Sequence record: ON528743
Source: Shigella phage ESh33
Strand: one strand, 5' to 3'
Length of the DNA stretch: 64,000 nucleotides
Below the pieces are notes generated by a model. It had not been told where the DNA came from. It worked only from the letters and a program-made list of their open reading frames with translations, and searched no databases. The number at the start of each line of letters is the position of its first letter. Position 1 is the first letter of the stretch. Below, one piece after another: positions 3,425 to 64,000 of this stretch. Both the position numbers and the translations under genes were made by a program.

Positions 3425-4708
3425 TTATTCATCAATAATAATTTTTGGTAATTTAACACCTAATAAAACAGACAAATCTGAACGACCCGCCATTTTATCC
3501 ATGTCTCCACCGTCAATTATTCTTGCTTCTTTTTCATCTTTTGCTACGGTATAAGGATTTGCTGATAAAGCATATCTAACTAATAAACCAATAGACGGTT
3601 GTAAGCTTTCTGGATCAACAACAACTTTAAATGCACCTACATGTTCAGGGTCATCTAAGTCGAGACCTTCTGTATACGGAGCATAGAAAATTGATCCAAC
3701 AATTTCTTTTTCACCGATATTTTCTACTACACCAACGATTACATAATCTAATGGGCTGTTAGTATCGCAATAAAGCGGTAAACCATTAGCTAAGAATCCA
3801 TAGGCATTTTGTGAAAGATATTTATCATCTTCTGGTTTATGTTTTAACCAACCTGATGCAGCAAGAATCGCAGCGGCACGAGCAGAAGCAACACAGAACG
3901 TTGCTGTATAAGTTGATTCTTTTTGGATATGCGAAACCATTTCACACACCATTCGGTATAATGAACGACCAGCTTCAGGTGCAGATGCATAACTCAAATC
4001 AATGAATCCAGTATCAGTAATTCCTGTAACTTTATAGCGTTTTGACACTGTAATCAAAGACTGCAGAATATCTTTATTGATTTCATCTGCCATTTCGGTT
4101 GCAAGCAAATCTTCCAAGAAATTAGGAGCATCGAATCCATTTGCTTCTAAATCTTGTGCTAATTCAACTGTAATGCCAGTTTTAAGTTTACGAGATTTAA
4201 CTGCGGTTTGCCATTTATTAATCTGGAATCTAGCATCCGCAATTTCACTATCAGAGCTTTCAAATTTGCTTGTTGATGCTGCATCAGAAAATAGACGAAC
4301 CTTTAAAAGAACGATTGCAATCTGAAGAGCTAACTCTAAGTCGCTTTCTTCAATATCAGCAAATGGTGTATCTTCTAATACTTTATAAACGATATTATTA
4401 TATTTGAATAAATCGCCTTTATTGAGAGTTAATTTAGACTCTTCTGTTAATTCTGTGATTTGTTCTCGGTCTACATATCCAGCTTCGCCAGCATAAGTAG
4501 CACCAGTTTTAAATGTAAATTCATTGTCTGGGTTAAGGTATTTGATACCATAAAAAGCAGCAACAGGTTGATTAGTTCTTTGCGTTGCTACAATGTCAGA
4601 ATATATTAATTTAGTGGTAGCGCGAGTCAAAGCAACGAGATTTGGGCGACCGATTGAGTTGCTATTCGTTGTGGTTGATTCGCGCAGAAGTTCGTTGATT
4701 TTAGCCAT
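3425..4708 (-). CDS. 24: head vertex protein gp24
   Basis: 427 aa, capsid-fold paralog of gp23; T4 position and length. Confidence 0.9.
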   Translation of the reverse strand: MAKINELLRESTTTNSNSIGRPNLVALTRATTKLIYSDIVATQRTNQPVAAFYGIKYLNPDNEFTFKTGATYAGEAGYVDREQITELTEESKLTLNKGDLFKYNNIVYKVLEDTPFADIEESDLELALQIAIVLLKVRLFSDAASTSKFESSDSEIADARFQINKWQTAVKSRKLKTGITVELAQDLEANGFDAPNFLEDLLATEMADEINKDILQSLITVSKRYKVTGITDTGFIDLSYASAPEAGRSLYRMVCEMVSHIQKESTYTATFCVASARAAAILAASGWLKHKPEDDKYLSQNAYGFLANGLPLYCDTNSPLDYVIVGVVENIGEKEIVGSIFYAPYTEGLDLDDPEHVGAFKVVVDPESLQPSIGLLVRYALSANPYTVAKDEKEARIIDGGDMDKMAGRSDLSVLLGVKLPKIIIDE

Positions 4709-4735
4709 TGCGCTTTCCTTTTGGTTTATATGATT

Positions 4736-4743
4736 TATTTATA
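4736..4743 (-). promoter_or_regulatory. late promoter (TATAAATA) for gene 24
   Basis: TATAAATA on minus strand ~30 nt upstream of gene 24 start. Confidence 0.65.
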
Positions 4744-4747
4744 CCAT

Positions 4748-4776
4748 AAAAACAACTAAAGGGACCCGAAGGTCCC
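4748..4776 (-). terminator. intrinsic terminator after gene 23
   Basis: Minus strand reads GGGACC-TTCG-GGTCCC then TTTAGTTGTTTTT. Confidence 0.7.
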
Positions 4777-4791
4777 TTAAATCGTCAAAGA

Positions 4792-6357
4792 TTAGATACC
4801 TTTAACATATACACGGCGGAAGTAAGCGTTTTTACCAAGGCTATTCAGAATAGAAGGCATACCGCTCTGGATGCGAGAAGCCGGAGCCTGAGCAGCGGAT
4901 TCTGCAAATGGGTTGATACCGATACCGTAACGAGTTTTGAATCCCATTACCGGTTGGAAGTTCTTCGGATCGGAACCACGCAGCGGAGTCAGAGCTACAT
5001 ATGGAGCATAGTAAATACCAGCATCCATTTCGTTCGGACCTTTATAACCTACAGTGAAATAATCCTGTTTAGCATACTGGTCGATATATACACGGTATTT
5101 ACCACCCAGAACACCAGCAAATACTGACTTGGTAGTATCAGTGTTAAAGCCGGTAGCCAGACCTTGCGCAGCATAAGAAATGCCAGTATCAACTGAAGCC
5201 AGAACGTTAACTACGTTACGGGAAGCGATAATGAAGTTACCTTCACCACGACCGGTCTGACGAGCAATTTCAACTGCTTCTTTGTCAATCTGGAACAACA
5301 GAGCTTTAAAGGATTCACCCGCCCAGCGAGCACCACGAATATCGATTGGGTCCTGGAAGTCAAATACACCAGCTTTAGAACCCGGAGTCAGGGTCATACC
5401 AGATTTACCAACCTGAGCTGAGTAGTTAATCCAATCAACAACTTCACGGTTGATTTCCAGCATAATTTCTGTAGCCAGAATGCCAGACAGTTCAGCATCA
5501 GCATCCATACCGTGAACAGCGCGGAGGTCCTGTGCTAATTCGATAGAGTAAGCAGCTTTCAGCTGACGAGATTTAGCTTCGATAACTTGTTTATCGATAC
5601 GGAAGCCCATTTCATTCCATGGGTTATCGGTAGAACCATTGAAACCTTCCTGGAGTTCAGCGATAGAAGTAGCCATACCTTCAGCGATTTCTACCAGTGC
5701 ACCAGCTTCCATTTGTTTCTTAATTTCAGCATCTAATTTATCTGCATCAGTTGCGCTTGCACTAATTGTTACTTGAGCAGAAGCTTGCAGATACACAGTA
5801 CCAGTGTCCTGGAAGAAGTGAGTATAGATATCACCTACTGTGGTTTCTGTGCTAGCAGCCAGAGCTGGGAATTTCTTAGCAGCACCCTGACCAGAGAACA
5901 TTGCATCTGGACCATACATTGGGTGGAATGCTTCTTTAGCACCGGCAGCGATCGGATCTTTACCATATACCGCGCGGAGTGCGAATACCTGACCGGTTGG
6001 GCTGCTCATCGGTTGAACACCGCAAATATCGAAAGCAATCAGGTTAGGAATAGCACGACGTACCATACCCATAACAGCTGGGCCAATCTGAGTTACTGCG
6101 CCAGAAGTCTGACCTGCAGCGATGTTGGTAGCATTGTAACCGTGGTCACCACCGATTTCAGCTTCTGTTAAGAAAGAACCGAATGCCTGAGCAATTTTTT
6201 CGTCTTTATATTCCGGAGCTGTCTGGAAATCTTTTTCCTGGTTTTCAAAGATTTTAGCGATAATCGCTTGTTTGCTATTAGCAATTTCCGGTAAACCTTC
6301 ACCTTCCAGTAATGGCTTCCATTTGTTCAAAAGTTCAGCTTTAGTTTTGATAGTCAT
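4792..6357 (-). CDS. 23: major capsid protein gp23 precursor
   Basis: 521 aa; N-terminus MTIKTKAELLNKWKPLLEGEG as in T4 gp23; T4 synteny. Confidence 0.95.
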   Translation of the reverse strand: MTIKTKAELLNKWKPLLEGEGLPEIANSKQAIIAKIFENQEKDFQTAPEYKDEKIAQAFGSFLTEAEIGGDHGYNATNIAAGQTSGAVTQIGPAVMGMVRRAIPNLIAFDICGVQPMSSPTGQVFALRAVYGKDPIAAGAKEAFHPMYGPDAMFSGQGAAKKFPALAASTETTVGDIYTHFFQDTGTVYLQASAQVTISASATDADKLDAEIKKQMEAGALVEIAEGMATSIAELQEGFNGSTDNPWNEMGFRIDKQVIEAKSRQLKAAYSIELAQDLRAVHGMDADAELSGILATEIMLEINREVVDWINYSAQVGKSGMTLTPGSKAGVFDFQDPIDIRGARWAGESFKALLFQIDKEAVEIARQTGRGEGNFIIASRNVVNVLASVDTGISYAAQGLATGFNTDTTKSVFAGVLGGKYRVYIDQYAKQDYFTVGYKGPNEMDAGIYYAPYVALTPLRGSDPKNFQPVMGFKTRYGIGINPFAESAAQAPASRIQSGMPSILNSLGKNAYFRRVYVKGI

Positions 6358-55557: not shown

Positions 55558-56019
55558 ATGATTATTAATGAAAACGCTTGGCACTATAAATTATTCAAAT
55601 TGTTTAACGATGAATGGCAACGACCTAAGACACTATGCGCATATTTTTGGTCTATTGCCATTCCTACATTTTTCGTTTCTATTTTTGGATGTGCTATACT
55701 CGTAGGGCTAACAATTATTTGTGCAGAAAGCCTACAACGTTGGCTTATTTTCGGTAGTTTATGGACTCTTATTCCATCAGCATTTATACTTGCCATTTTG
55801 TTTGTTTTACTTATTATTGGTTCATTTGTTATTCCTGCACAACTGCATGAAAAATATAAAGATTATAAATGGAAAAAGGATTATGCTTTACATGTAGAAA
55901 ATATTGATAGGGCGTATAAGGGTTTACCTCCTATTCAACCCAAGAAATCTATTATCGTCGAATTTTTAAAAGCGCGTAAAGCTAAAGTATGTCCTGTTAT
56001 TGAATATAAGGCTGAATGA
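55558..56019 (+). CDS. multi-pass membrane protein (153 aa)
   Basis: RBS AAAGGA; three or more hydrophobic helices; stop overlaps start of the nucleotidyltransferase-like gene. Confidence 0.6.
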   Translation: MIINENAWHYKLFKLFNDEWQRPKTLCAYFWSIAIPTFFVSIFGCAILVGLTIICAESLQRWLIFGSLWTLIPSAFILAILFVLLIIGSFVIPAQLHEKYKDYKWKKDYALHVENIDRAYKGLPPIQPKKSIIVEFLKARKAKVCPVIEYKAE

Positions 56020-57029
56020 TGAAAACAGTAATGAAAAGCTATTTTGGTAGTCATCTTTATGGAACTTCTACCCCAGAATCTGATGTAGATTTTAAAGAAA
56101 TCTTTGTTCCTCCTGCTCGTGATATTCTTATCGGAAATGTTAAAGAGCATATGAGTAAAAACACTAACAACACATCATCTAAAAACACTAAAGATGATAT
56201 TGACCATGAACTATACAGTCTTAAATATTTCTTTAAATTAGCAGCAGATGGTGAAACTGTAGCATTGGATATGCTCCACACTCCGCCGGAACTAGTGGTT
56301 AAATCTGATTTGCCTGATGTATGGAAATTTATCCAAGACAATCGTTCACGGTTTTATACAACTAACATGAAATCCTATTTAGGATATGTCCGCAAGCAAG
56401 CTTCTAAATACGGTGTCAAGGGTTCTCGTTTGGCCGCATTACGTGATGTATTGAAAGTAGTTAATCAAATCCCTGACCAGTGGGTCGACTATCAAGAAGG
56501 AATCCCTGATAGACTTCGTCGTACTAAGGTAGAAGATATCAAACACAGACTCCCTGAAAACGAGTTCTGTGAATGGGTGTTCCATAATCACGAGAAAACA
56601 GGCCCGCAAACGTTCTACACTGTGTTGGGTCGTAAATATCAGACAACACTTTCTCTTATTGAGCTTAAGCAGTCACTGAACAAATTAGATGCTGAATATG
56701 GTGAACGTGCTCGTAAAGCCGAAGCTAATGAAGGTATTGATTGGAAAGCTCTGAGTCATGCTTGTCGTGGTGGACTTCAACTATTGGAAATTTACAAAAC
56801 TGGTGACTTGATTTATCCACTCCAAGATGCTCCATTTATTCTCGACGTGAAGTTGGGTAAGCATCCATTTAAAACAGTTCAAGAGTTTTTGGAAGATGTG
56901 GTCGATCAAGTAGAAGCAGCATCTACTGAAGCTTCTAAGAACGGTATGCAGCAAAAAGTAGACATGAGTTTCTGGGATGACTTCCTTGAGAAGGTCTATC
57001 TTGAAAACCACCGAAGTTATTATAAATGA
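56016..57029 (+). CDS. nucleotidyltransferase-like protein (Pol-beta superfamily signature)
   Basis: 337 aa; N-terminal GSHLYGTSTPESDVDF fits G[SG]x(9-13)Dh[DE]h; third acidic residue candidate in VALDMLH; followed by terminator 57031-57058. Confidence 0.6.
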   Translation: MMKTVMKSYFGSHLYGTSTPESDVDFKEIFVPPARDILIGNVKEHMSKNTNNTSSKNTKDDIDHELYSLKYFFKLAADGETVALDMLHTPPELVVKSDLPDVWKFIQDNRSRFYTTNMKSYLGYVRKQASKYGVKGSRLAALRDVLKVVNQIPDQWVDYQEGIPDRLRRTKVEDIKHRLPENEFCEWVFHNHEKTGPQTFYTVLGRKYQTTLSLIELKQSLNKLDAEYGERARKAEANEGIDWKALSHACRGGLQLLEIYKTGDLIYPLQDAPFILDVKLGKHPFKTVQEFLEDVVDQVEAASTEASKNGMQQKVDMSFWDDFLEKVYLENHRSYYK

Positions 57030-57030
57030 T

Positions 57031-57058
57031 AGGGAGCCTTCGGGCTCCCTTTTTTATT
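57031..57058 (+). terminator. intrinsic terminator after the nucleotidyltransferase-like gene
   Basis: GGGAGCC-TTCG-GGCTCCC then TTTTTTATTT. Confidence 0.75.
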
Positions 57059-57080
57059 TCAAAAATTTTTCACAAAACTG

Positions 57081-57109
57081 TTTACAAGCATAAAGCTTTA
57101 TGGTACTAT
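57081..57109 (+). promoter_or_regulatory. sigma70-like early promoter (cassette shared with 41648 promoter)
   Basis: TTTACA-17-TACTAT; 26-nt upstream block identical to 41630-41655. Confidence 0.6.
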
Positions 57110-57147
57110 ACAACTATCAAAACAAATGAGTAAATTGGAGATACAAA

Positions 57148-57348
57148 ATGACTACTTTGAATAAACGTTTCGGTAAAGCTAAATCTGGTTGTGCAGCTGA
57201 ACGTCGTTATGTTTTCGCTCAGTTAGAAGATGTAGAGTATCAGATTAATCAAGTTCACATTACTGGTATCGAGCCTATGTGTGGCCTTGAAGCTCTTCGT
57301 GAAGTTCGTGACGGGTATCGTCGTGACATCGAAGAAATGTCAAAATAA
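57148..57348 (+). CDS. hypothetical small protein (66 aa)
   Basis: RBS GGAGA behind early promoter 57081-57109. Confidence 0.55.
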   Translation: MTTLNKRFGKAKSGCAAERRYVFAQLEDVEYQINQVHITGIEPMCGLEALREVRDGYRRDIEEMSK

Positions 57349-57349
57349 G

Positions 57350-57387
57350 TATACAAACTGATAGGACTATGTTATAGTAGTCCTATC
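57350..57387 (+). promoter_or_regulatory. promoter for the AAA+ ATPase gene with palindrome flanking the -10
   Basis: TATACA-17-TATAGT; inverted repeat GATAGGACT/AGTCCTATC, a compensated variant of the 37715-37742 element. Confidence 0.55.
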
Positions 57388-57405
57388 AAATCAAAGGAGA
57401 ATAAA

Positions 57406-58374
57406 ATGAAAACTGTAACTATCAATAAGGGTATCTACTTTGGCAAAGAAATCTCTGGAACTTTTGAGCTCTTAGGCGAATGGTTCCCAGATAATGCTCC
57501 GGTAGATGCGCAAGGAGATGGTAAAGTTTTTGTTGAAATTGACGGTAAACGTCGCGGTGTTTGGGTTTACAAATCAGACATTTCATATGATGGTGTAAAA
57601 GTTGAAGAAGTTAAAGAATCATATGAAGATATGAAAACCCGCATTAATAAAAGATTTAATGTTATGGGAATGATGACGAATGGTATTATTAACGGAAACA
57701 TTCGTTCATTAATTATCTCTGGTGCGGCGGGTATTGGTAAAACGTATTCTTTAGATAAAGCTTTAAATAAAGCAAATGATATTGGATACATTGAATATAA
57801 AAGCATTAACGGTAAAATCTCCGGTATCGGTCTTTATGAACAGCTTTGGAATAATCGTGAAGAGAATTCTGTCCTTTTGATTGATGATGTGGATGTTTTC
57901 TCTGATATGGACATTCTTAATCTTCTGAAAGCTGCTCTGGACACTGGAGAGACCCGTAAAGTCTGCTGGAGCACCGCATCTTCTTACTTAGAAGAAAAAG
58001 GCATTGAGCGTGAGTTTGAATTTAAAGGAACGATTGTTTTTATCACAAACGTTGACATTGACCGCGAATTAGACCGTGGTACTAAACTTGCTCCACATTT
58101 ACAAGCATTAGTGTCCCGCTCAGTTTATTTGGATTTGGGTGTTCACACTAATGAAGAAATTATGGTCAGGGTTGAAGATGTTATTCTTTCAACTGACATG
58201 ATGCAAAAGCGCGGTCTTTCTGATGAAGAAACTTATAAAGCATTATCATGGATGAAAGTCAATGTTAATCGTTTACGCAATGTTTCACTGCGTACTGCTC
58301 TTTATCTTGCTGACTTTATTATGACCGACAAAAATGGTTGGGAAGAAATTGCTGAGGTTACTCTTCTGAAATAA
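57406..58374 (+). CDS. AAA+-type ATPase of unknown function
   Basis: 322 aa; Walker A GAAGIGKT, Walker B LLIDDVD, sensor-like FITN; RBS AAAGGAG behind palindrome-flanked promoter 57350-57387. Confidence 0.65.
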   Translation: MKTVTINKGIYFGKEISGTFELLGEWFPDNAPVDAQGDGKVFVEIDGKRRGVWVYKSDISYDGVKVEEVKESYEDMKTRINKRFNVMGMMTNGIINGNIRSLIISGAAGIGKTYSLDKALNKANDIGYIEYKSINGKISGIGLYEQLWNNREENSVLLIDDVDVFSDMDILNLLKAALDTGETRKVCWSTASSYLEEKGIEREFEFKGTIVFITNVDIDRELDRGTKLAPHLQALVSRSVYLDLGVHTNEEIMVRVEDVILSTDMMQKRGLSDEETYKALSWMKVNVNRLRNVSLRTALYLADFIMTDKNGWEEIAEVTLLK

Positions 58375-58472
58375 TTCATAAGAGGCCTTCTATGACAAAA
58401 AGGCAGTTCAGAAATAGATTATATGGACTGCCATCAAAAAGATGACTAGAATTAAACTGGTAAATGGAGGTA

Positions 58473-58778
58473 ATGATGTTATACTCAAAGGCTCGTGAAA
58501 TTTACGAAACTAAAATTAAAGAAGCAGTATTTCAGTTCGCAACGACAATGCGTTGGACAAATGACTGGGAATACTCCAAGAATCATAAGAAGCCCTTGGT
58601 GACAAGAAAGGCTCATATGTTAGTGTTAATAGACCGTGAGCAGATTAAAGCCCGAGAAGCCCTCCAGAATCATAAAAAGGCTGCCTTTGAATGGTTTATG
58701 GATAACACTGCTCCTGAGACTAAGAAAGCAGTGAGCGCTTGGTTCAGTGGAAAAAATTGTGAAAGAAGTTTCTTTTAG
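58473..58778 (+). CDS. hypothetical protein (101 aa)
   Basis: ATG 58473 after GGAGG; track start 58464 includes the RBS. Confidence 0.5.
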   Translation: MMLYSKAREIYETKIKEAVFQFATTMRWTNDWEYSKNHKKPLVTRKAHMLVLIDREQIKAREALQNHKKAAFEWFMDNTAPETKKAVSAWFSGKNCERSFF

Positions 58779-58781
58779 TTG

Positions 58782-58810
58782 TTTACAAGACTGTTCCTCT
58801 GTGGTATTAT
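58782..58810 (+). promoter_or_regulatory. sigma70-like early promoter
   Basis: TTTACA-17-TATTAT with TGG extension. Confidence 0.6.
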
Positions 58811-58838
58811 ACAACTATCAACTACGGAGGAACAGAAA

Positions 58839-59366
58839 ATGAATGCTAAAGATATTTTCAACTTGGTAAACTACAATGATGGTAAATTTAAATCTGAAGC
58901 TCAAAGCAAGTTCTTTAATGATGTCTCAATCGGTGGTGAAATCACGGTTGATGGAGGACAAATTTACAAATCCCGTTGGAATTGGATCGTTATTATCGAT
59001 GAGATTGGTATTGTAGAAATTTACAAAAATACGAATAAAAATCGTACATTACACTGGTCTCGTGATACTAACGAACAGTACAAAAAGGATAAAGCATCTA
59101 AATTATCTCGTGTAACTCAAGAAGATATTGAGTTCATCAAGAAAGATATTTTGATGTATGATAACTTAATTGCTGAAGAGCAAGCTGTTATTGATAAATT
59201 TGACGAGATTAAAGCTTCTCGTGAAATTCCTGATTTTATGAAAGAATCAGTAAATGAACGATACACTCTCATTTCAGAGCGTATTGAAACTTACAAAAAG
59301 CAAAGAGCTGAACGCCAGAATACTCTTCGGAAGTTTGAAGAACGGTTAAAGACGGTACTCGCATAA
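58839..59366 (+). CDS. hypothetical protein (175 aa)
   Basis: ATG 58839 with RBS GGAGG behind early promoter 58782-58810; track start 58779 lies in the promoter. Confidence 0.55.
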   Translation: MNAKDIFNLVNYNDGKFKSEAQSKFFNDVSIGGEITVDGGQIYKSRWNWIVIIDEIGIVEIYKNTNKNRTLHWSRDTNEQYKKDKASKLSRVTQEDIEFIKKDILMYDNLIAEEQAVIDKFDEIKASREIPDFMKESVNERYTLISERIETYKKQRAERQNTLRKFEERLKTVLA

Positions 59367-59421
59367 CCGCTTTATACCAAGGATGGTATAATGGTTCTAA
59401 GCCCTTTTAATTGAGATTATT

Positions 59422-59823
59422 ATGAAACAGTTGATAATTAAAAGATTGAATTTATTGATATGTTGTTTATGTATAGTAGTTGCATATGGTTATTATGCTA
59501 TTAATGATTATATGCATTATAAAGATTATGATGTTACTGTAGTTAATACCCTTACAGGAACTCAAGGAAAGGGGTCTAGTTTATCGTTTATTGCTGTATA
59601 TGAGCTGAATGATGGTTATAGATTTAGCGAATATATTTCACCAGAGATGTATTCGTCAATAGAAAAAGGTGATAATATTACTGTAAGTTTACGTCCTTTC
59701 GACGTAAAACAGACATTGTTTGATAATATCGTTTGGTTCTTTGGAATGGTATTAGTTCAATCTATATGCGGTGCTTATATAGTCTTTTCCATCATATTCT
59801 GTATATTTAGTAAAATTGAGTGA
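59422..59823 (+). CDS. small membrane protein (133 aa)
   Basis: Two hydrophobic helices (N- and C-terminal). Confidence 0.5.
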   Translation: MKQLIIKRLNLLICCLCIVVAYGYYAINDYMHYKDYDVTVVNTLTGTQGKGSSLSFIAVYELNDGYRFSEYISPEMYSSIEKGDNITVSLRPFDVKQTLFDNIVWFFGMVLVQSICGAYIVFSIIFCIFSKIE

Positions 59824-59830
59824 GGAAAAT

Positions 59831-60718
59831 ATGTCAGTAGTAATTAATAATGTTAATGCAGTAATTAAATCTTTAGTTAATAAAAAATTGAATGAATGGA
59901 CTGTACTTCGTCGTGGAGAGCCAGATAAATTTTTTCATAGATTTAACCCAACTTTGGATTTGAATGTTATTGACAGAGATGTTCATGCAGAAATTTTAGA
60001 TAAGTTTAAAGTTGATATTGGATTTGGATTAGAAAAACATTTACAGCGAACAAACGGGTCTGGAATGGGTTTATCTAATCGCATTATGAAAGCCCTTAAT
60101 AAAATTGGAGCATTGTCTCGTATTAATGCAAGTGAAATTCTTCGCAATTATAATAAAGGATATGACCTTTATGGTCGACTAATGCCAAAATTATCATTCG
60201 ATCAAATGATTGAGGATTTGTGGGAAAATCAACGACGATTATTAGCATTAGGCGCTCGATTAGCTAAAGGTCTAGATAAACAAATGATTTTTAAGACCAA
60301 TAATACAGAAGACCTTAAATGCTTTAAATTTAGTATTCGCGGCGATGATTATTACGTCAGAGCTCGCTCTACAGATTATGTTAATATGGGGCATCATCTC
60401 TGTTTAGCTTTTGAAGTTTTAAAAGAAGCTGGAACATTAGAATATTCATCTGGTGCAAAATGCCCGATTGGTTCAAGTTGTATTTTAATTTATCGCCCGG
60501 ATGAATCCAGTTCAACTAAATTGCCTACAAACCCTGTACCAGTTCGTAGTAACGAAAAACATTCTGAGCAAATTGATTATTTTAATAAGCAAATTGAAGA
60601 GCTGAATATTTCTATTCAACAGTATGACGATGAAATTTTCAGACTATCTGGATTGAGTAGTAAAGCTAAATCTGAGCGTGAAAAATTAATTAAAATTGTT
60701 GATTTACTTAAATCTTAA
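59831..60718 (+). CDS. hypothetical protein (295 aa), first of four tandem large ORFs with C-terminal coiled-coil
   Basis: ATG 59831 with RBS GAGGAAAA (track start is TTG); C-terminal amphipathic helix. Confidence 0.55.
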   Translation: MSVVINNVNAVIKSLVNKKLNEWTVLRRGEPDKFFHRFNPTLDLNVIDRDVHAEILDKFKVDIGFGLEKHLQRTNGSGMGLSNRIMKALNKIGALSRINASEILRNYNKGYDLYGRLMPKLSFDQMIEDLWENQRRLLALGARLAKGLDKQMIFKTNNTEDLKCFKFSIRGDDYYVRARSTDYVNMGHHLCLAFEVLKEAGTLEYSSGAKCPIGSSCILIYRPDESSSTKLPTNPVPVRSNEKHSEQIDYFNKQIEELNISIQQYDDEIFRLSGLSSKAKSEREKLIKIVDLLKS

Positions 60719-60726
60719 GGAACACT

Positions 60727-61731
60727 ATGAAAACTCGTTCTCAAATTGAAGATATGGTTCGTAATGCCAGCTATACCCGTAATGTTATGACATTTTTGTG
60801 CCAAAATAATTTAGACCCTGATAAAGTTAATCGTGATATTCACTTTAAGTATATGAATAGCAGTGAATGGTTACGTCATTTTAGTAAAGCGGGATATATT
60901 ACACAAATGACTGCTCGTGAGCAGCTCACCGATTTCTGTAAAACTATTGATTATAAAAATCCTCTATTTGTTCAAGGCGTTGGTCAGAGTAAGGTTGATT
61001 TATCAACAGGATTTTTTAATCCAAATCATTATCGTATTGAATGGAGATTTATTGCTCTATTTCGTAAACAATTAAAGCAAATTTTGTCTACTGCTAGTCG
61101 ATTAAAGGGCTCTGATATTAACTTAAAGAATCTGAAATTTGATGGTTATACTCTTCAGATGGAAGTAAGACCATTAAAAGAAAATAATAGAACTGCACGA
61201 ATTAGCTTTAAACCTAGTACTAAAAATTCTCTTTCAATTTGTGAATGTCTTAAATCACAGTTGACAGAAGCATTTAAGTATATGGATGTTGTTTCTGCTG
61301 TTCAGTCTAAGATTTCGCAGCATTTCGAACGATTTAAATTAGATACGACAACATATGAACTTGATATGATCGTTTCATTTAAATATGATTTTTTGAGAAA
61401 GGACGAAGTTACACAAGAGAAAAAACCTGAACCCCAAACTAATTACTCATCAAACGATCCTAAATTTTGGATGTATAGTTCAGGTAATAATGATGCATGG
61501 AAATTCAATAAAGTGAATTTTCTTCCTGTTGAAAATCCGAGTCTTAAACCTGTTGAAAAATGGCACGCGGATGCGATTGAGAAGTCTATCAAGGCAGTAG
61601 ATGATGAACTCGTTAAAGCAACTAATGAAGTGTTAGAAGCTGAAAAGATGCTAGAAAAAGCTCAAGAAAAAGTAAAAAATCTCACGAAGCAACGTTCTAA
61701 ATTGAACAACGCACTAAATGCACTAAACTAG
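60727..61731 (+). CDS. hypothetical protein (334 aa), tandem family member
   Basis: RBS AAGGAA; N-terminus MKTR...; C-terminal coiled-coil EAEKMLEKAQEKVKNL. Confidence 0.55.
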   Translation: MKTRSQIEDMVRNASYTRNVMTFLCQNNLDPDKVNRDIHFKYMNSSEWLRHFSKAGYITQMTAREQLTDFCKTIDYKNPLFVQGVGQSKVDLSTGFFNPNHYRIEWRFIALFRKQLKQILSTASRLKGSDINLKNLKFDGYTLQMEVRPLKENNRTARISFKPSTKNSLSICECLKSQLTEAFKYMDVVSAVQSKISQHFERFKLDTTTYELDMIVSFKYDFLRKDEVTQEKKPEPQTNYSSNDPKFWMYSSGNNDAWKFNKVNFLPVENPSLKPVEKWHADAIEKSIKAVDDELVKATNEVLEAEKMLEKAQEKVKNLTKQRSKLNNALNALN

Positions 61732-61760
61732 TTTACTTCGCCACAAGGATGTGGTATAAT
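61732..61760 (+). promoter_or_regulatory. sigma70-like early promoter
   Basis: TTTACT-17-TATAAT with TGG extension. Confidence 0.6.
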
Positions 61761-61788
61761 GTTCTTACTTTCTACTGAGGAGATTAAT

Positions 61789-62790
61789 ATGACTCGCAAC
61801 GAATATATTAAATCGTTCAACAGCGTTATTGATGATAAAGTTAAACCTATGTCTAGTCAGAATAGTGTGATTTCTATTATCAATCAATGGCTCAATAATA
61901 CTGATGCAAGTATTGTTTCTTCCGGCAAATTTATTCATGAAGTTCGTGAAATTTCTAGTCGTACAGATAAAGATGACATTAAGAAAACCTTTAAAGGGTC
62001 TCGTCTTCTTTCATACTTAGTCAACAGAGATATTCTTAGTAAATTTGGGAAAGAAATTAAACGAACTAAAGATGTAGTAGGATATAATTGGTTCGGTGAT
62101 GTTAATTCTTATCATCTTAATAATAAAGAATACCCTGAGAATATTTTTACTCGTCGTTGGATTAGTAATTTCAGACTTTTCAAAGGACAAATTCTAAAAT
62201 CAGCTTCTAAATTATGTTATGGCGATTATCGTCAAATTCATCCTTTGGCTTCTGATATGATTATCGTAAAAGAATATGAGCTTGATGAAAATAAAGTAGC
62301 TATTTTTGTGAATTATGGATTTTTTACACCAAACGCTAACCAAAAGAATATTAATAAATTTTTCTCAATTGCTAGCACTATAACTTATCAATTAGAGGCG
62401 GTTTTGGGCTGTATGGAAACTGTAAAAAGTATTCATACATATCCTTTCAAAAATATGTGTGGTTGGGAAGGATATAAAATTATAATTAGCCTTCGTGAAG
62501 TAAAGTGTGCGTGCTCATCGACTGATAAAGAAATTTACCAACAAAAATGTGATGAAATTGTGAATACTCCTAAAGAAGAAACTACCCTTGAAGAACTAAT
62601 GGAATGTCTTGACGATTCACCTGAACCGATAGAAATTCGTCCAGAAGTTATTGCACTAGAAAAAGCTTATAAAGAAGCTCTAGAAATTTCTAATAAAGCA
62701 CAGAAAGAATATGAGAAGGCTAAAAGGATTTGGGAAGAATCTGTTAATCGCCTGGATCGTCTTGAACAAGCTTTACAGTTAATTAAGTAA
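61789..62790 (+). CDS. hypothetical protein (333 aa), tandem family member
   Basis: ATG 61789 with RBS GAGGAG behind promoter TTTACT-17-TATAAT (61732-61760); C-terminal coiled-coil. Confidence 0.55.
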   Translation: MTRNEYIKSFNSVIDDKVKPMSSQNSVISIINQWLNNTDASIVSSGKFIHEVREISSRTDKDDIKKTFKGSRLLSYLVNRDILSKFGKEIKRTKDVVGYNWFGDVNSYHLNNKEYPENIFTRRWISNFRLFKGQILKSASKLCYGDYRQIHPLASDMIIVKEYELDENKVAIFVNYGFFTPNANQKNINKFFSIASTITYQLEAVLGCMETVKSIHTYPFKNMCGWEGYKIIISLREVKCACSSTDKEIYQQKCDEIVNTPKEETTLEELMECLDDSPEPIEIRPEVIALEKAYKEALEISNKAQKEYEKAKRIWEESVNRLDRLEQALQLIK

Positions 62791-62842
62791 TTTAAAGCCA
62801 AGGATGGCTCGGAGTATAAACCATTAACCAAGTGAGAAGAAT

Positions 62843-63772
62843 ATGAAAACTCGTAAACATTATATTGATTATTTTGACAGTCTTATTACTAAACACCGTA
62901 ATTATCAGATCGGGCACAGAACAGTAATCAATAATATTCTTCGTGATTTCCTTCAATATGTTGGTCAGGAAAATCATATCTGTAAAGATACTCAAAACGC
63001 TTATTCTCATTCGTTAGGCAATTTGCTTGAATGGTTTAAACGTTCTCGTATGTTATCTTCTACTGTAGCTCATGAGAACATTAAAAACTTTATGAAGCCG
63101 AGCTTCATTAAATCTGAGACATCTATAACCGATTTGGTTGAATTTACTATTGTTAATGATGTTAAAAAGACTCATTTGGCTGATTGGTTTTCTACCATTC
63201 CTGAAACTAATTTTGCTGATAAATTTGCTTGTCAATTCAATGACCAAGTGAATATGCTTTTTAAGCATGCTCGCAAACTATTTACCGCGGGCGATGACCG
63301 TACAAATACAGTTCATGTTAAGGACTGGGTTATTGCTGATGAAGTAACACATAAGCCAGGTGGTTCATCAGTATTAATTAATATCCAGGTTCCTTATTAT
63401 TACTCACGTAATCTTGGCACCATGACAGCTAAAGAAATTAATAAGCACAACAAAACTATTCGTTCGTTATCTTATAAACTCCGCATGATGTTAAAAATCA
63501 TGGACGTAGTAGAAATGTATGACGAAACCGAAGATAATGGTTCAATGTTATACAGTTCACGCATTTTAATTAAACTGAAGAACCCTAATACATATAAGAC
63601 AGTTGTAAAAGAGCCTAAAGTAGAAAAGATTGATAACTTGAGCGAAGAACGTGAATACCTCAAATCTCGACTAGTTGAAGTTGAAGCTCAGATTGCCGAA
63701 CACACTAAATTGTTAAAAGCTCTTAATGCAAAAGCAAATGGTTTACGTAATGCTATTGAGGTATTGAAATGA
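62843..63772 (+). CDS. hypothetical protein (309 aa), tandem family member
   Basis: RBS GAGAAGAA; N-terminus MKTRKHYIDYFDSLI resembles previous member; C-terminal coiled-coil. Confidence 0.55.
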   Translation: MKTRKHYIDYFDSLITKHRNYQIGHRTVINNILRDFLQYVGQENHICKDTQNAYSHSLGNLLEWFKRSRMLSSTVAHENIKNFMKPSFIKSETSITDLVEFTIVNDVKKTHLADWFSTIPETNFADKFACQFNDQVNMLFKHARKLFTAGDDRTNTVHVKDWVIADEVTHKPGGSSVLINIQVPYYYSRNLGTMTAKEINKHNKTIRSLSYKLRMMLKIMDVVEMYDETEDNGSMLYSSRILIKLKNPNTYKTVVKEPKVEKIDNLSEEREYLKSRLVEVEAQIAEHTKLLKALNAKANGLRNAIEVLK

Positions 63773-64000
63773 AAAAGCGTCTATTAGAAGATATTGCAGC
63801 TTCAAGTAATTCCAGTCTAATTAAAATTATTATGGCTGGTGAAGAAGACGATCTGGAAATGCGCGGAAAGATTCATGGTTGTGATGATTTAGATTTTAAA
63901 CCTCCAGCCTGGGATGCTATTATGGTTATGGTTGAACGTCGCGAAAGGGCTTCTAAAAACGTTCCTAATTGTCCTGAATGCGGTACTGAACAAGTTCAAT
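63769..64000 (+). CDS. 5' part of a hypothetical protein with a CPECG zinc-ribbon-like motif; continues past window end
   Basis: ATGA overlap with previous stop; frame open to window end. Confidence 0.45.
   Translation, partial: MKKRLLEDIAASSNSSLIKIIMAGEEDDLEMRGKIHGCDDLDFKPPAWDAIMVMVERRERASKNVPNCPECGTEQVQ

Follow-up and report, generated by a model that had tools for sequence, protein, structure and literature searches.

Four consecutive open reading frames (ORFs) lie on one strand of a 64,000-nucleotide (nt) stretch of DNA from Shigella phage ESh33 (sequence record ON528743), which we call the window, and each of them encodes a protein that ends in a heptad-patterned helix. These ORFs are orthologs of the T4 early genes nrdC.6, nrdC.5, nrdC.4 and nrdC.3, which belong to the nrdC-mobD interval, downstream of rI. 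In this study, we examine how the four genes are related to one another, how they vary among phages, and what they may do. We conclude that they are ancient tandem paralogs derived from one gene, which many Straboviridae carry directly before nrdC.2. No lytic phage has been studied more thoroughly than T4, and about half of its genes are without an assigned function. Three 'hypothetical' T4 genes are placed by this analysis in one family with a validated anti-Dsr1 protein, which makes them specific and cheaply testable candidates for counter-defence.

The four genes and their T4 orthologs

The four genes of the array are as follows (aa, amino acids).

59831..60718, + strand: nrdC.6 ortholog, 295 aa; PHROG 2257 (E 9e-153), Pfam PF26899; the most divergent member of the array
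60727..61731, + strand: nrdC.5 ortholog, 334 aa; DUF7235 (PF23882, E 1e-116), PHROG 2351; its T4 ortholog counteracts Dsr1
61789..62790, + strand: nrdC.4 ortholog, 333 aa; PHROG 1435 (E 7e-165), Pfam PF26897
62843..63772, + strand: nrdC.3 ortholog, 309 aa; PHROG 1435 (E 7e-115), PF26897; an allele class common to Mosigvirus

The genus of the window is Tequatrovirus (T4-like), and its + strand corresponds to the minus strand of T4. A megablast search with window positions 59400-64000 matched 654 phage records, the best of them at 98.4% nucleotide identity, and query coverage was at least 80% in 464 of the 654. The genes annotated under the match in Escherichia phage KMB22 and in T4 (NC_000866, OZ209057) are nrdC.6, nrdC.5, nrdC.4 and nrdC.3. 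In these genomes nrdC.11 through nrdC.7 are followed by nrdC.6-5-4-3 and then by nrdC.2, nrdC.1 and nrdC, and the window ORFs from 56016 to 63772 reproduce that order on one strand (nrdC.11-.10-.9-.8-.7, 6-5-4-3, then nrdC.2). The stop codon of nrdC.3 overlaps the start codon of nrdC.2 (ATGA).

Amino acid identity of the four ORFs to the KMB22 genes is 94-98%, and to T4 it is 97% for nrdC.6, 90% for nrdC.5, 89% for nrdC.4 and 60% for nrdC.3. The nrdC.5 ortholog occupies the same place as in T4, between nrdC.6 and nrdC.4, and matches the DUF7235 model at full length (390 bits against a cut-off of 30; protein residues 1-334, model positions 1-307 of 307); the other three ORFs have no match to this model in the Pfam scan. 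Family databases hold the four genes as separate families, with nrdC.3 and nrdC.4 together, all listed as of unknown function. A literature search on the Pfam accessions returned no paper mentioning them, which is not proof that the family link is undescribed. The sequence-only reading that preceded this analysis had given the coordinates of the four ORFs as we find them; it knew of no T4 counterpart of this size after rI, and in this it was mistaken.

In many GenBank records the genes from nrdC.2 through nrdC.11 carry the label thioredoxin. None of the four proteins matched a thioredoxin family in the Pfam and NCBIfam scans, so that the label is without domain support here; the gene name nrdC.x seems to be its source.

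Homology, predicted fold and the C-terminal helix

All-against-all BLASTP comparison of the four proteins gave a sole link, between nrdC.3 and nrdC.4 (24% identity over 226 residues). The relation of the other three ORFs to nrdC.5 is remote, at about 20% identity or less and across separate Pfam and PHROG families. Profile-profile alignment with hhalign joined nrdC.3 to nrdC.4 at 97.6-98.2% probability (best E 3e-14), and joined either of these to nrdC.5 at 85-88%. After removal of the last 60 residues, the bodies still matched at 98.4% for nrdC.3 and nrdC.4 and at 89.9% for nrdC.4 and nrdC.5, and thus the coiled coil is not the source of the similarity. The C-terminal 60 residues alone gave profiles that were unmatched between families, save for a weak link at 49% between nrdC.3 and nrdC.5.

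Relatives from other genera extend these links to nrdC.6. A profile search with nrdC.4 and nrdC.3 over 1.84 billion representative proteins returned 10 matches, all of them T4-like phage relatives or fragments, and no homolog outside the T4-like phages. One of the 10 was a bridging protein of Klebsiella Marfavirus phages (P0236), which matched both the nrdC.5 family (97.6%, E 4e-12) and the nrdC.4 family (96%, E 4e-9). The Marfavirus family as a whole matched nrdC.5 at 95.5% (E 1.4e-8) and nrdC.4 at 93.6% (E 2e-7), and the single-copy family of Karam- and Kanagawavirus matched nrdC.6 at 96.8% (E 2e-10) and the Marfavirus family at 97.0% (E 8e-11). At the DNA level, no repeats were found among the four genes beyond a 19-nt region, common to nrdC.5 and nrdC.3, that covers the ribosome-binding site and the MKTR start, and hence the duplications are ancient. 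What is added by these comparisons is that four separately filed families and the single-copy relatives of other genera are united as one fold family.

AlphaFold2 (AF2) models cover nrdC.6 (predicted local distance difference test, pLDDT, 77.6) and nrdC.4 (pLDDT 82.2). The order of elements is the same in both models: N-terminal helices, a motif helix pair, a second helix pair, a beta-hairpin, a long helix, another beta-hairpin, a low-confidence linker and a terminal helical element, the last of which takes different forms, a hairpin in nrdC.6 and, in nrdC.4, a single helix of 48 residues. In a Foldseek search of BFVD, the nrdC.4 model matched the model of JS10 nrdC.6 (E 7e-6; template modelling (TM) scores 0.42/0.48), and the nrdC.4 and nrdC.6 models share five BFVD targets, which are 300-335-aa proteins from T4-like phages of Acinetobacter and Enterobacter.

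The motif helix pair was aligned by hhalign in every family pair, including pairs that were otherwise weak, at the following positions.

60095..60151, + strand: shared helix-pair motif of nrdC.6, LNKIGALSRINASEILRNY
60880-60936, + strand: shared helix-pair motif of nrdC.5, FSKAGYITQMTAREQLTDF
61990-62046, + strand: shared helix-pair motif of nrdC.4, FKGSRLLSYLVNRDILSKF
63035-63091, + strand: shared helix-pair motif of nrdC.3, FKRSRMLSSTVAHENIKNF

A loose motif pattern, derived afterwards, was found in 33 of 68 family ORFs and in 0 of 213 other ORFs of the same loci. The N-terminal similarities that the sequence-only reading had picked out, NEYIKSFNSVI and KHYIDYFDSLI, are present as written, and the two MKTR starts that it mentioned belong to nrdC.5 and nrdC.3.

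These results bear on whether the resemblance could be superficial, in which case four unrelated ORFs would each merely end in an amphipathic helix. The confinement of BLAST links to nrdC.3 and nrdC.4 and the weakness of direct profile comparisons with nrdC.6 are in keeping with such a view, to which we nonetheless give hardly any credence: the profile matches persist without the C-terminal helix, a chain of links at 94-98% joins all four families, the AF2 models have the same element order and cross-match in BFVD, and the gene order 6-5-4-3 is conserved, with single-copy relatives at the same locus. The sequence-only reading had proposed a tandem family whose members combine a variable body with a coiled-coil-like helix at the C-terminus, and the profile links, the models and the body-only matches uphold this. 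It had allowed that the proteins might prove unrelated beyond their helices, which was not found, or that they might map to T4 genes of established function; they are indeed known T4 genes, among which nrdC.5 alone has an established function, one that fits its guess.

The C-terminal helix was examined over the final 42 residues of the four proteins. Read in its best heptad register, each of them has hydrophobic residues at 9-11 of the 12 a/d positions, and the peptides quoted in the sequence-only reading are present. Significance was assessed with 2000 shuffles, each protein's own N-terminal windows serving as a second control. The resulting P values were 0.011 for nrdC.6, <0.0005 for nrdC.5, 0.0045 for nrdC.4 and 0.006 for nrdC.3, and at most 1.5% of the N-terminal windows of any protein scored as high as its C-terminus. 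Two neighbours used as controls, nrdC.10 and nrdC.11, lacked the heptad signal in the same test. The a/d periodicity falls within a long helix free of proline and glycine, with AF2-predicted helices of 43-48 residues, as a coiled coil would have, and every family has a terminal tail matching (Q/E/N)R-x-x-L-x-x-A-(L/I/M)-x-x-L-K. The regions concerned are these.

60563..60712, + strand: nrdC.6 C-terminal helical hairpin, aa 245-294; AF2 helices 245-271 and 276-294, low-confidence linker 227-241
61543..61728, + strand: nrdC.5 C-terminal heptad region, aa 273-334; 11/12 a/d positions hydrophobic, invariant columns across the family
62641..62784, + strand: nrdC.4 single long C-terminal helix, aa 285-332; AF2 helix H285-332 (48 residues)
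63641..63769, + strand: nrdC.3 C-terminal heptad helix, aa 267-309; 10/12 a/d positions hydrophobic, 81% conserved in the family

Taken together, the models suggest a common design, in which an N-terminal helical region with the helix-pair motif leads into a middle domain (beta-beta-alpha-beta-beta) of variable sequence; a disordered linker then connects this domain to the heptad-patterned C-terminal helix, which is conserved. Conservation differs along this predicted architecture. Within families, conservation is lowest in the middle domain for nrdC.6, nrdC.4 and nrdC.5 (the nrdC.5 linker excepted), with values of 45-64% across the four. For the C-terminal helix the values are 57-81%; no other region of nrdC.4 or nrdC.3 is as well conserved, and in nrdC.6 the helix ranks with the best conserved parts. 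In nrdC.4 the mean pairwise identity is 70% for the helix versus 45% for the middle domain.

Such conservation raises the possibility that the helix is itself the active part, contacting a common host or phage partner or joining the paralogs into hetero-oligomers, and that the body only tunes specificity or stability. Consistent with this, the strong conservation of the helix in nrdC.4, nrdC.3 and nrdC.6 extends to positions outside the a/d core, a similar tail recurs in all families, and the genes are co-expressed from a single early region. The near absence of profile matches between the C-terminal 60 residues of different families argues the other way, as does the nrdC.6 of the reference T4 record, which is without this tail, and we consider the idea improbable.

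The T4 record itself may be at fault. In T4 RefSeq (NC_000866, 52066-52893) nrdC.6 has 275 aa, and its tail (...LFNNMMMKFSDYLD) is an unrelated one. In the window, in T4 assembly OZ209057 (296 aa), in the HIDEN-SEQ T4 annotation and in other Tequatroviruses, the protein has 295-296 aa and keeps the coiled-coil tail. A frameshift in the reference, or an error in its sequencing, probably accounts for the short form.

Further candidates were tried and set aside. A fifth family member, nrdC.8, was suggested by its helical tail and by the action of its Bas37 ortholog against Druantia III; profile comparison with the family gave at most 1.1%, and the heptad test was only borderline (P 0.08). A tyrosine recombinase N-terminal SAM-like domain was suggested for nrdC.3 only, by NCBIfam XerD models at 15-17 bits against cut-offs of 279-330; across the family, Phage_int_SAM_1 matched 1 of 22 members (E 0.12), and the recombinase lead was dropped. 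The NCBIfam and PADLOC scans gave nothing above cut-off.

Copy number, divergence and turnover

Profile and structure searches found the family restricted to Straboviridae, where the copy number ranges from 1 to 4 and the gene order is conserved.

Tequatrovirus: array 6-5-4-3
Dhakavirus: array 6-5-4
Mosigvirus: array 6-5-3
Moon-, Karam-, Kanagawa-, Marfa- and Jiaodavirus: one copy, directly upstream of nrdC.2
Acinetobacter phage Acj61: two copies, from BFVD matches (E5E4A1, E5E4A2)

Copy number and sequence thus vary across the relatives, as the sequence-only reading had predicted for the T-even phages. Between genera the array genes share 22-49% identity, versus 75-79% for nrdC.10, which lies about 1.5 kilobases (kb) upstream of the array. 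Within Tequatrovirus, the ratio of non-synonymous to synonymous substitution rates (dN/dS) is 0.16-0.32 for nrdC.5, nrdC.4 and nrdC.3 and 0.05-0.15 for nrdC.6, and it is 0-0.09 for the neighbours nrdC.11, nrdC.10 and nrdC.8; non-synonymous sites change 3-5 times faster in the array genes than in these neighbours. The array thus consists of real genes that evolve faster than their neighbours under gene-wide purifying selection (dN/dS 0.05-0.32).

One of the four is dimorphic. In Tequatrovirus nrdC.3 occurs as two allele classes with 60% aa identity and a dS of about 1, and the window carries the second class, which is closer to Mosigvirus than to T4 (75% aa identity to ST0 versus 60% to T4; 94% nucleotide identity to HX01). 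An allele common to Mosigvirus points to exchange between the genera. The sequence-only reading had called the family diversifying, a description that agrees with the faster non-synonymous change and the two deep nrdC.3 alleles and has to be tempered by the purifying selection acting on each gene as a whole.

Turnover of the array is evident from natural variants. One of them (P0057) has an in-frame fusion, nrdC.5(145-266)::nrdC.3(129-309), with loss of nrdC.4, and Shigella phage Sf25 (P0124) has an nrdC.6 with an 83-residue internal duplication (residues 176-258). ELT1 (3911-4841) carries a deletion of about 1 kb across nrdC.4 and nrdC.3, and at an IMG/VR locus (L013, 6971-8003) nrdC.4 is split by a frameshift.

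Upstream of the single-copy member, Jiaoda-, Karam-, Kanagawa-, Marfa- and Tegunavirus have a conserved gene of about 257-263 aa (L021 11257-12045; L022 11683-12456; L025 11630-12421; L028-L032, ORFs of about 770 nt). Its product has the C-terminus ...YGSLPK...F(F/Y)KRP..., is without the coiled-coil tail and has no similarity to the nrdC.3-6 family.

Proposed counter-defence function and neighbouring genes

The functional evidence concerns nrdC.5 of T4. An evolved T4 clone with deletions fails on ECOR17, and expression of T4 nrdC.5 restores plating of the T4 deletion clone on cells with Dsr1 from ECOR17, a SIR2-domain protein thought to deplete nicotinamide adenine dinucleotide (NAD+) (Srikant, Guegler and Laub, eLife 2022, PMC9391042). 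How nrdC.5 works is not explained in that study, which has no data on nrdC.3, nrdC.4 or nrdC.6, and a literature search for follow-up on nrdC.5 and Dsr1 found no mechanism paper. The nrdC.5 ortholog of the window most likely blocks Dsr1, the SIR2-domain NAD+-depleting protein. A comparable task falls to DSAD1, a phage inhibitor of the defence-associated sirtuin DSR2, which is reported to act by direct binding (PMC10973363, PMC10981675). The target of DSAD1 is DSR2, not Dsr1, and homology between the two phage proteins is not expected.

Genes around the array have similar roles. The product of nrdC.1 inhibits Septu and that of bas37_0203 inhibits Druantia III (HIDEN-SEQ, bioRxiv 10.1101/2025.11.20.689424); by size and position, bas37_0203 is the ortholog of nrdC.8, two genes upstream of the array. 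T6 gp49.2, encoded just past nrdC, inhibits OLD (PMC13096335). Accessory character is shown by transposon maps of T4 and Bas37, in which nrdC.3 to nrdC.6 and their Bas37 orthologs are non-essential on K-12 (10.1101/2025.11.20.689424). With nrdC.1, gp49.2, nrdC.5 and the nrdC.8 ortholog all directed against defences, the array sits inside an anti-defence island. It resembles the T4 dmd-tifA-adfA island and anti-CRISPR loci, which likewise are clusters of small-to-medium, early, non-essential and fast-evolving genes, variable in content, with several acting against distinct defences. Most anti-defence islands are described as sets of unrelated genes, whereas this one contains four adjacent paralogs of one fold. 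As to the host-range or anti-defence role that the sequence-only reading had suggested, the anti-defence part agrees with the action of T4 nrdC.5 against Dsr1 (PMC9391042) and with the neighbourhood, and a host range set by receptor binding found no support.

We consider it probable that the array is a set of paralogous counter-defence genes, made early, of which each member neutralises a different host immune protein by binding and oligomerisation. In this scheme nrdC.3, nrdC.4 and nrdC.6 would also be counter-defence factors. The proteins would be made early in infection, as a match to a T4-early-type promoter before nrdC.4 suggests. Recognition of a host immune protein, through direct binding, would fall to the variable middle domain or body, and dimers or higher oligomers may form by way of the C-terminal coiled coil, lending avidity against oligomeric defence proteins. 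Given its strong conservation, non-core positions included, the helix may instead be the binding surface itself, or mediate hetero-oligomers among the paralogs.

Several observations weigh against this interpretation. Direct hhalign comparison of nrdC.6 with nrdC.3, nrdC.4 and nrdC.5 is weak, at 24% probability or less, so that the case for nrdC.6 as a member depends on transitive links and on TM-scores no higher than 0.42-0.49; the nrdC.5 family is absent from the BFVD match lists of both the nrdC.4 and the nrdC.6 model. Oligomerisation through the C-terminal helix is suggested by a sequence pattern alone, and the conservation of the helix beyond its a/d positions could mean that it is a binding surface. 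Database scans revealed no solved relative, known domain or recognisable catalytic domain in any member, a result that a binding protein fits better than an enzyme. Among the four paralogs, a published phenotype exists for nrdC.5 only, and it comes without a mechanism. Finally, in two Bas37 strain comparisons examined from the HIDEN-SEQ preprint (10.1101/2025.11.20.689424), the four Bas37 orthologs (bas37_0198-0201) have log2 fold changes of -0.73 to +0.12, none of them significant, and the authors of the preprint did not take them further.

It may thus be that the four genes are paralogs and only nrdC.5 acts in counter-defence, the others having a different accessory role in host takeover, such as adjusting host physiology in certain growth conditions, or being redundant or decaying copies. 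For nrdC.3, nrdC.4 and nrdC.6 there is no known phenotype, and the neutral behaviour of the Bas37 orthologs in those two comparisons fits this account, as do the broken copies in natural isolates (the ELT1 deletion, the L013 frameshift and the nrdC.5::nrdC.3 fusion). Against it stand the purifying selection on all four genes in the genus, their intactness in most of the 654 matched records, and the fact that the surrounding genes of known role are nearly all anti-defence; fast divergence and variable copy number are, moreover, typical of counter-defence genes. We therefore regard a role confined to nrdC.5 as rather unlikely, and favour counter-defence by all four.

A broader proposal, which we advance tentatively and hold to be somewhat short of probable, is that the family comprises modular immune inhibitors specific to Straboviridae, with a constant C-terminal coiled coil that would oligomerise the protein and a fast-evolving beta-beta-alpha-beta-beta recognition domain that would have been retargeted by duplication. 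Each paralog would be devoted to one defence system, with Dsr1 as the first known target, and the rise from one copy to four in phages of E. coli would reflect successive encounters with new host defences. The array suggests a way in which tandem duplication could let a phage diversify a single inhibitor scaffold. The domain map, with its motif helices, variable middle and conserved C-terminal helix, offers a guide for dissecting NrdC.5, and knowing which defence is disabled by each paralog would help to predict or engineer the host range of T4-like therapeutic phages.

Promoter-like sites and nrdC.8 are located as follows.

61732..61760, + strand: T4-early-type promoter-like site, (G)TTTACT, 17-nt spacer, TGgTATAAT (extended -10 TG), in the 57-nt gap before nrdC.4
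62791-62820: weaker promoter-like site, read by eye, TTTAAA, 18 nt, TATAAA; precedes nrdC.3
58839-59366: nrdC.8, 175 aa, helical C-terminus; promoter-like site at 58782-58810

The evidence for the site before nrdC.4 is purely its agreement with the consensus, at 10 of 12 positions, and promoter-like sites are no more numerous in the region than shuffles would predict. The nrdC.4 start was taken at ATG 61789 because a GAGGAG Shine-Dalgarno sequence stands there; an alternative ATG at 61759 falls within the -10 element of the promoter-like site.

Other features were noted upstream. A terminator-like hairpin at 57031-57050, directly after nrdC.11, has an 8-bp stem with 6 GC pairs followed by a T run, and 9 terminator-like sites were observed in 57000-64000 versus 3.6 expected from shuffles. 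Between nrdC.10 and nrdC.9, KMB22 (4275-4994) and some Tequatroviruses carry a homing endonuclease gene that the window (58374-58464) is without. The product of nrdC.10 (57406-58374) is a P-loop (AAA/STAND-like) protein, unusually conserved for an accessory region, with 99-100% aa identity in the genus and 75-79% across Tevenvirinae genera, and it is detectable in jumbo phages.

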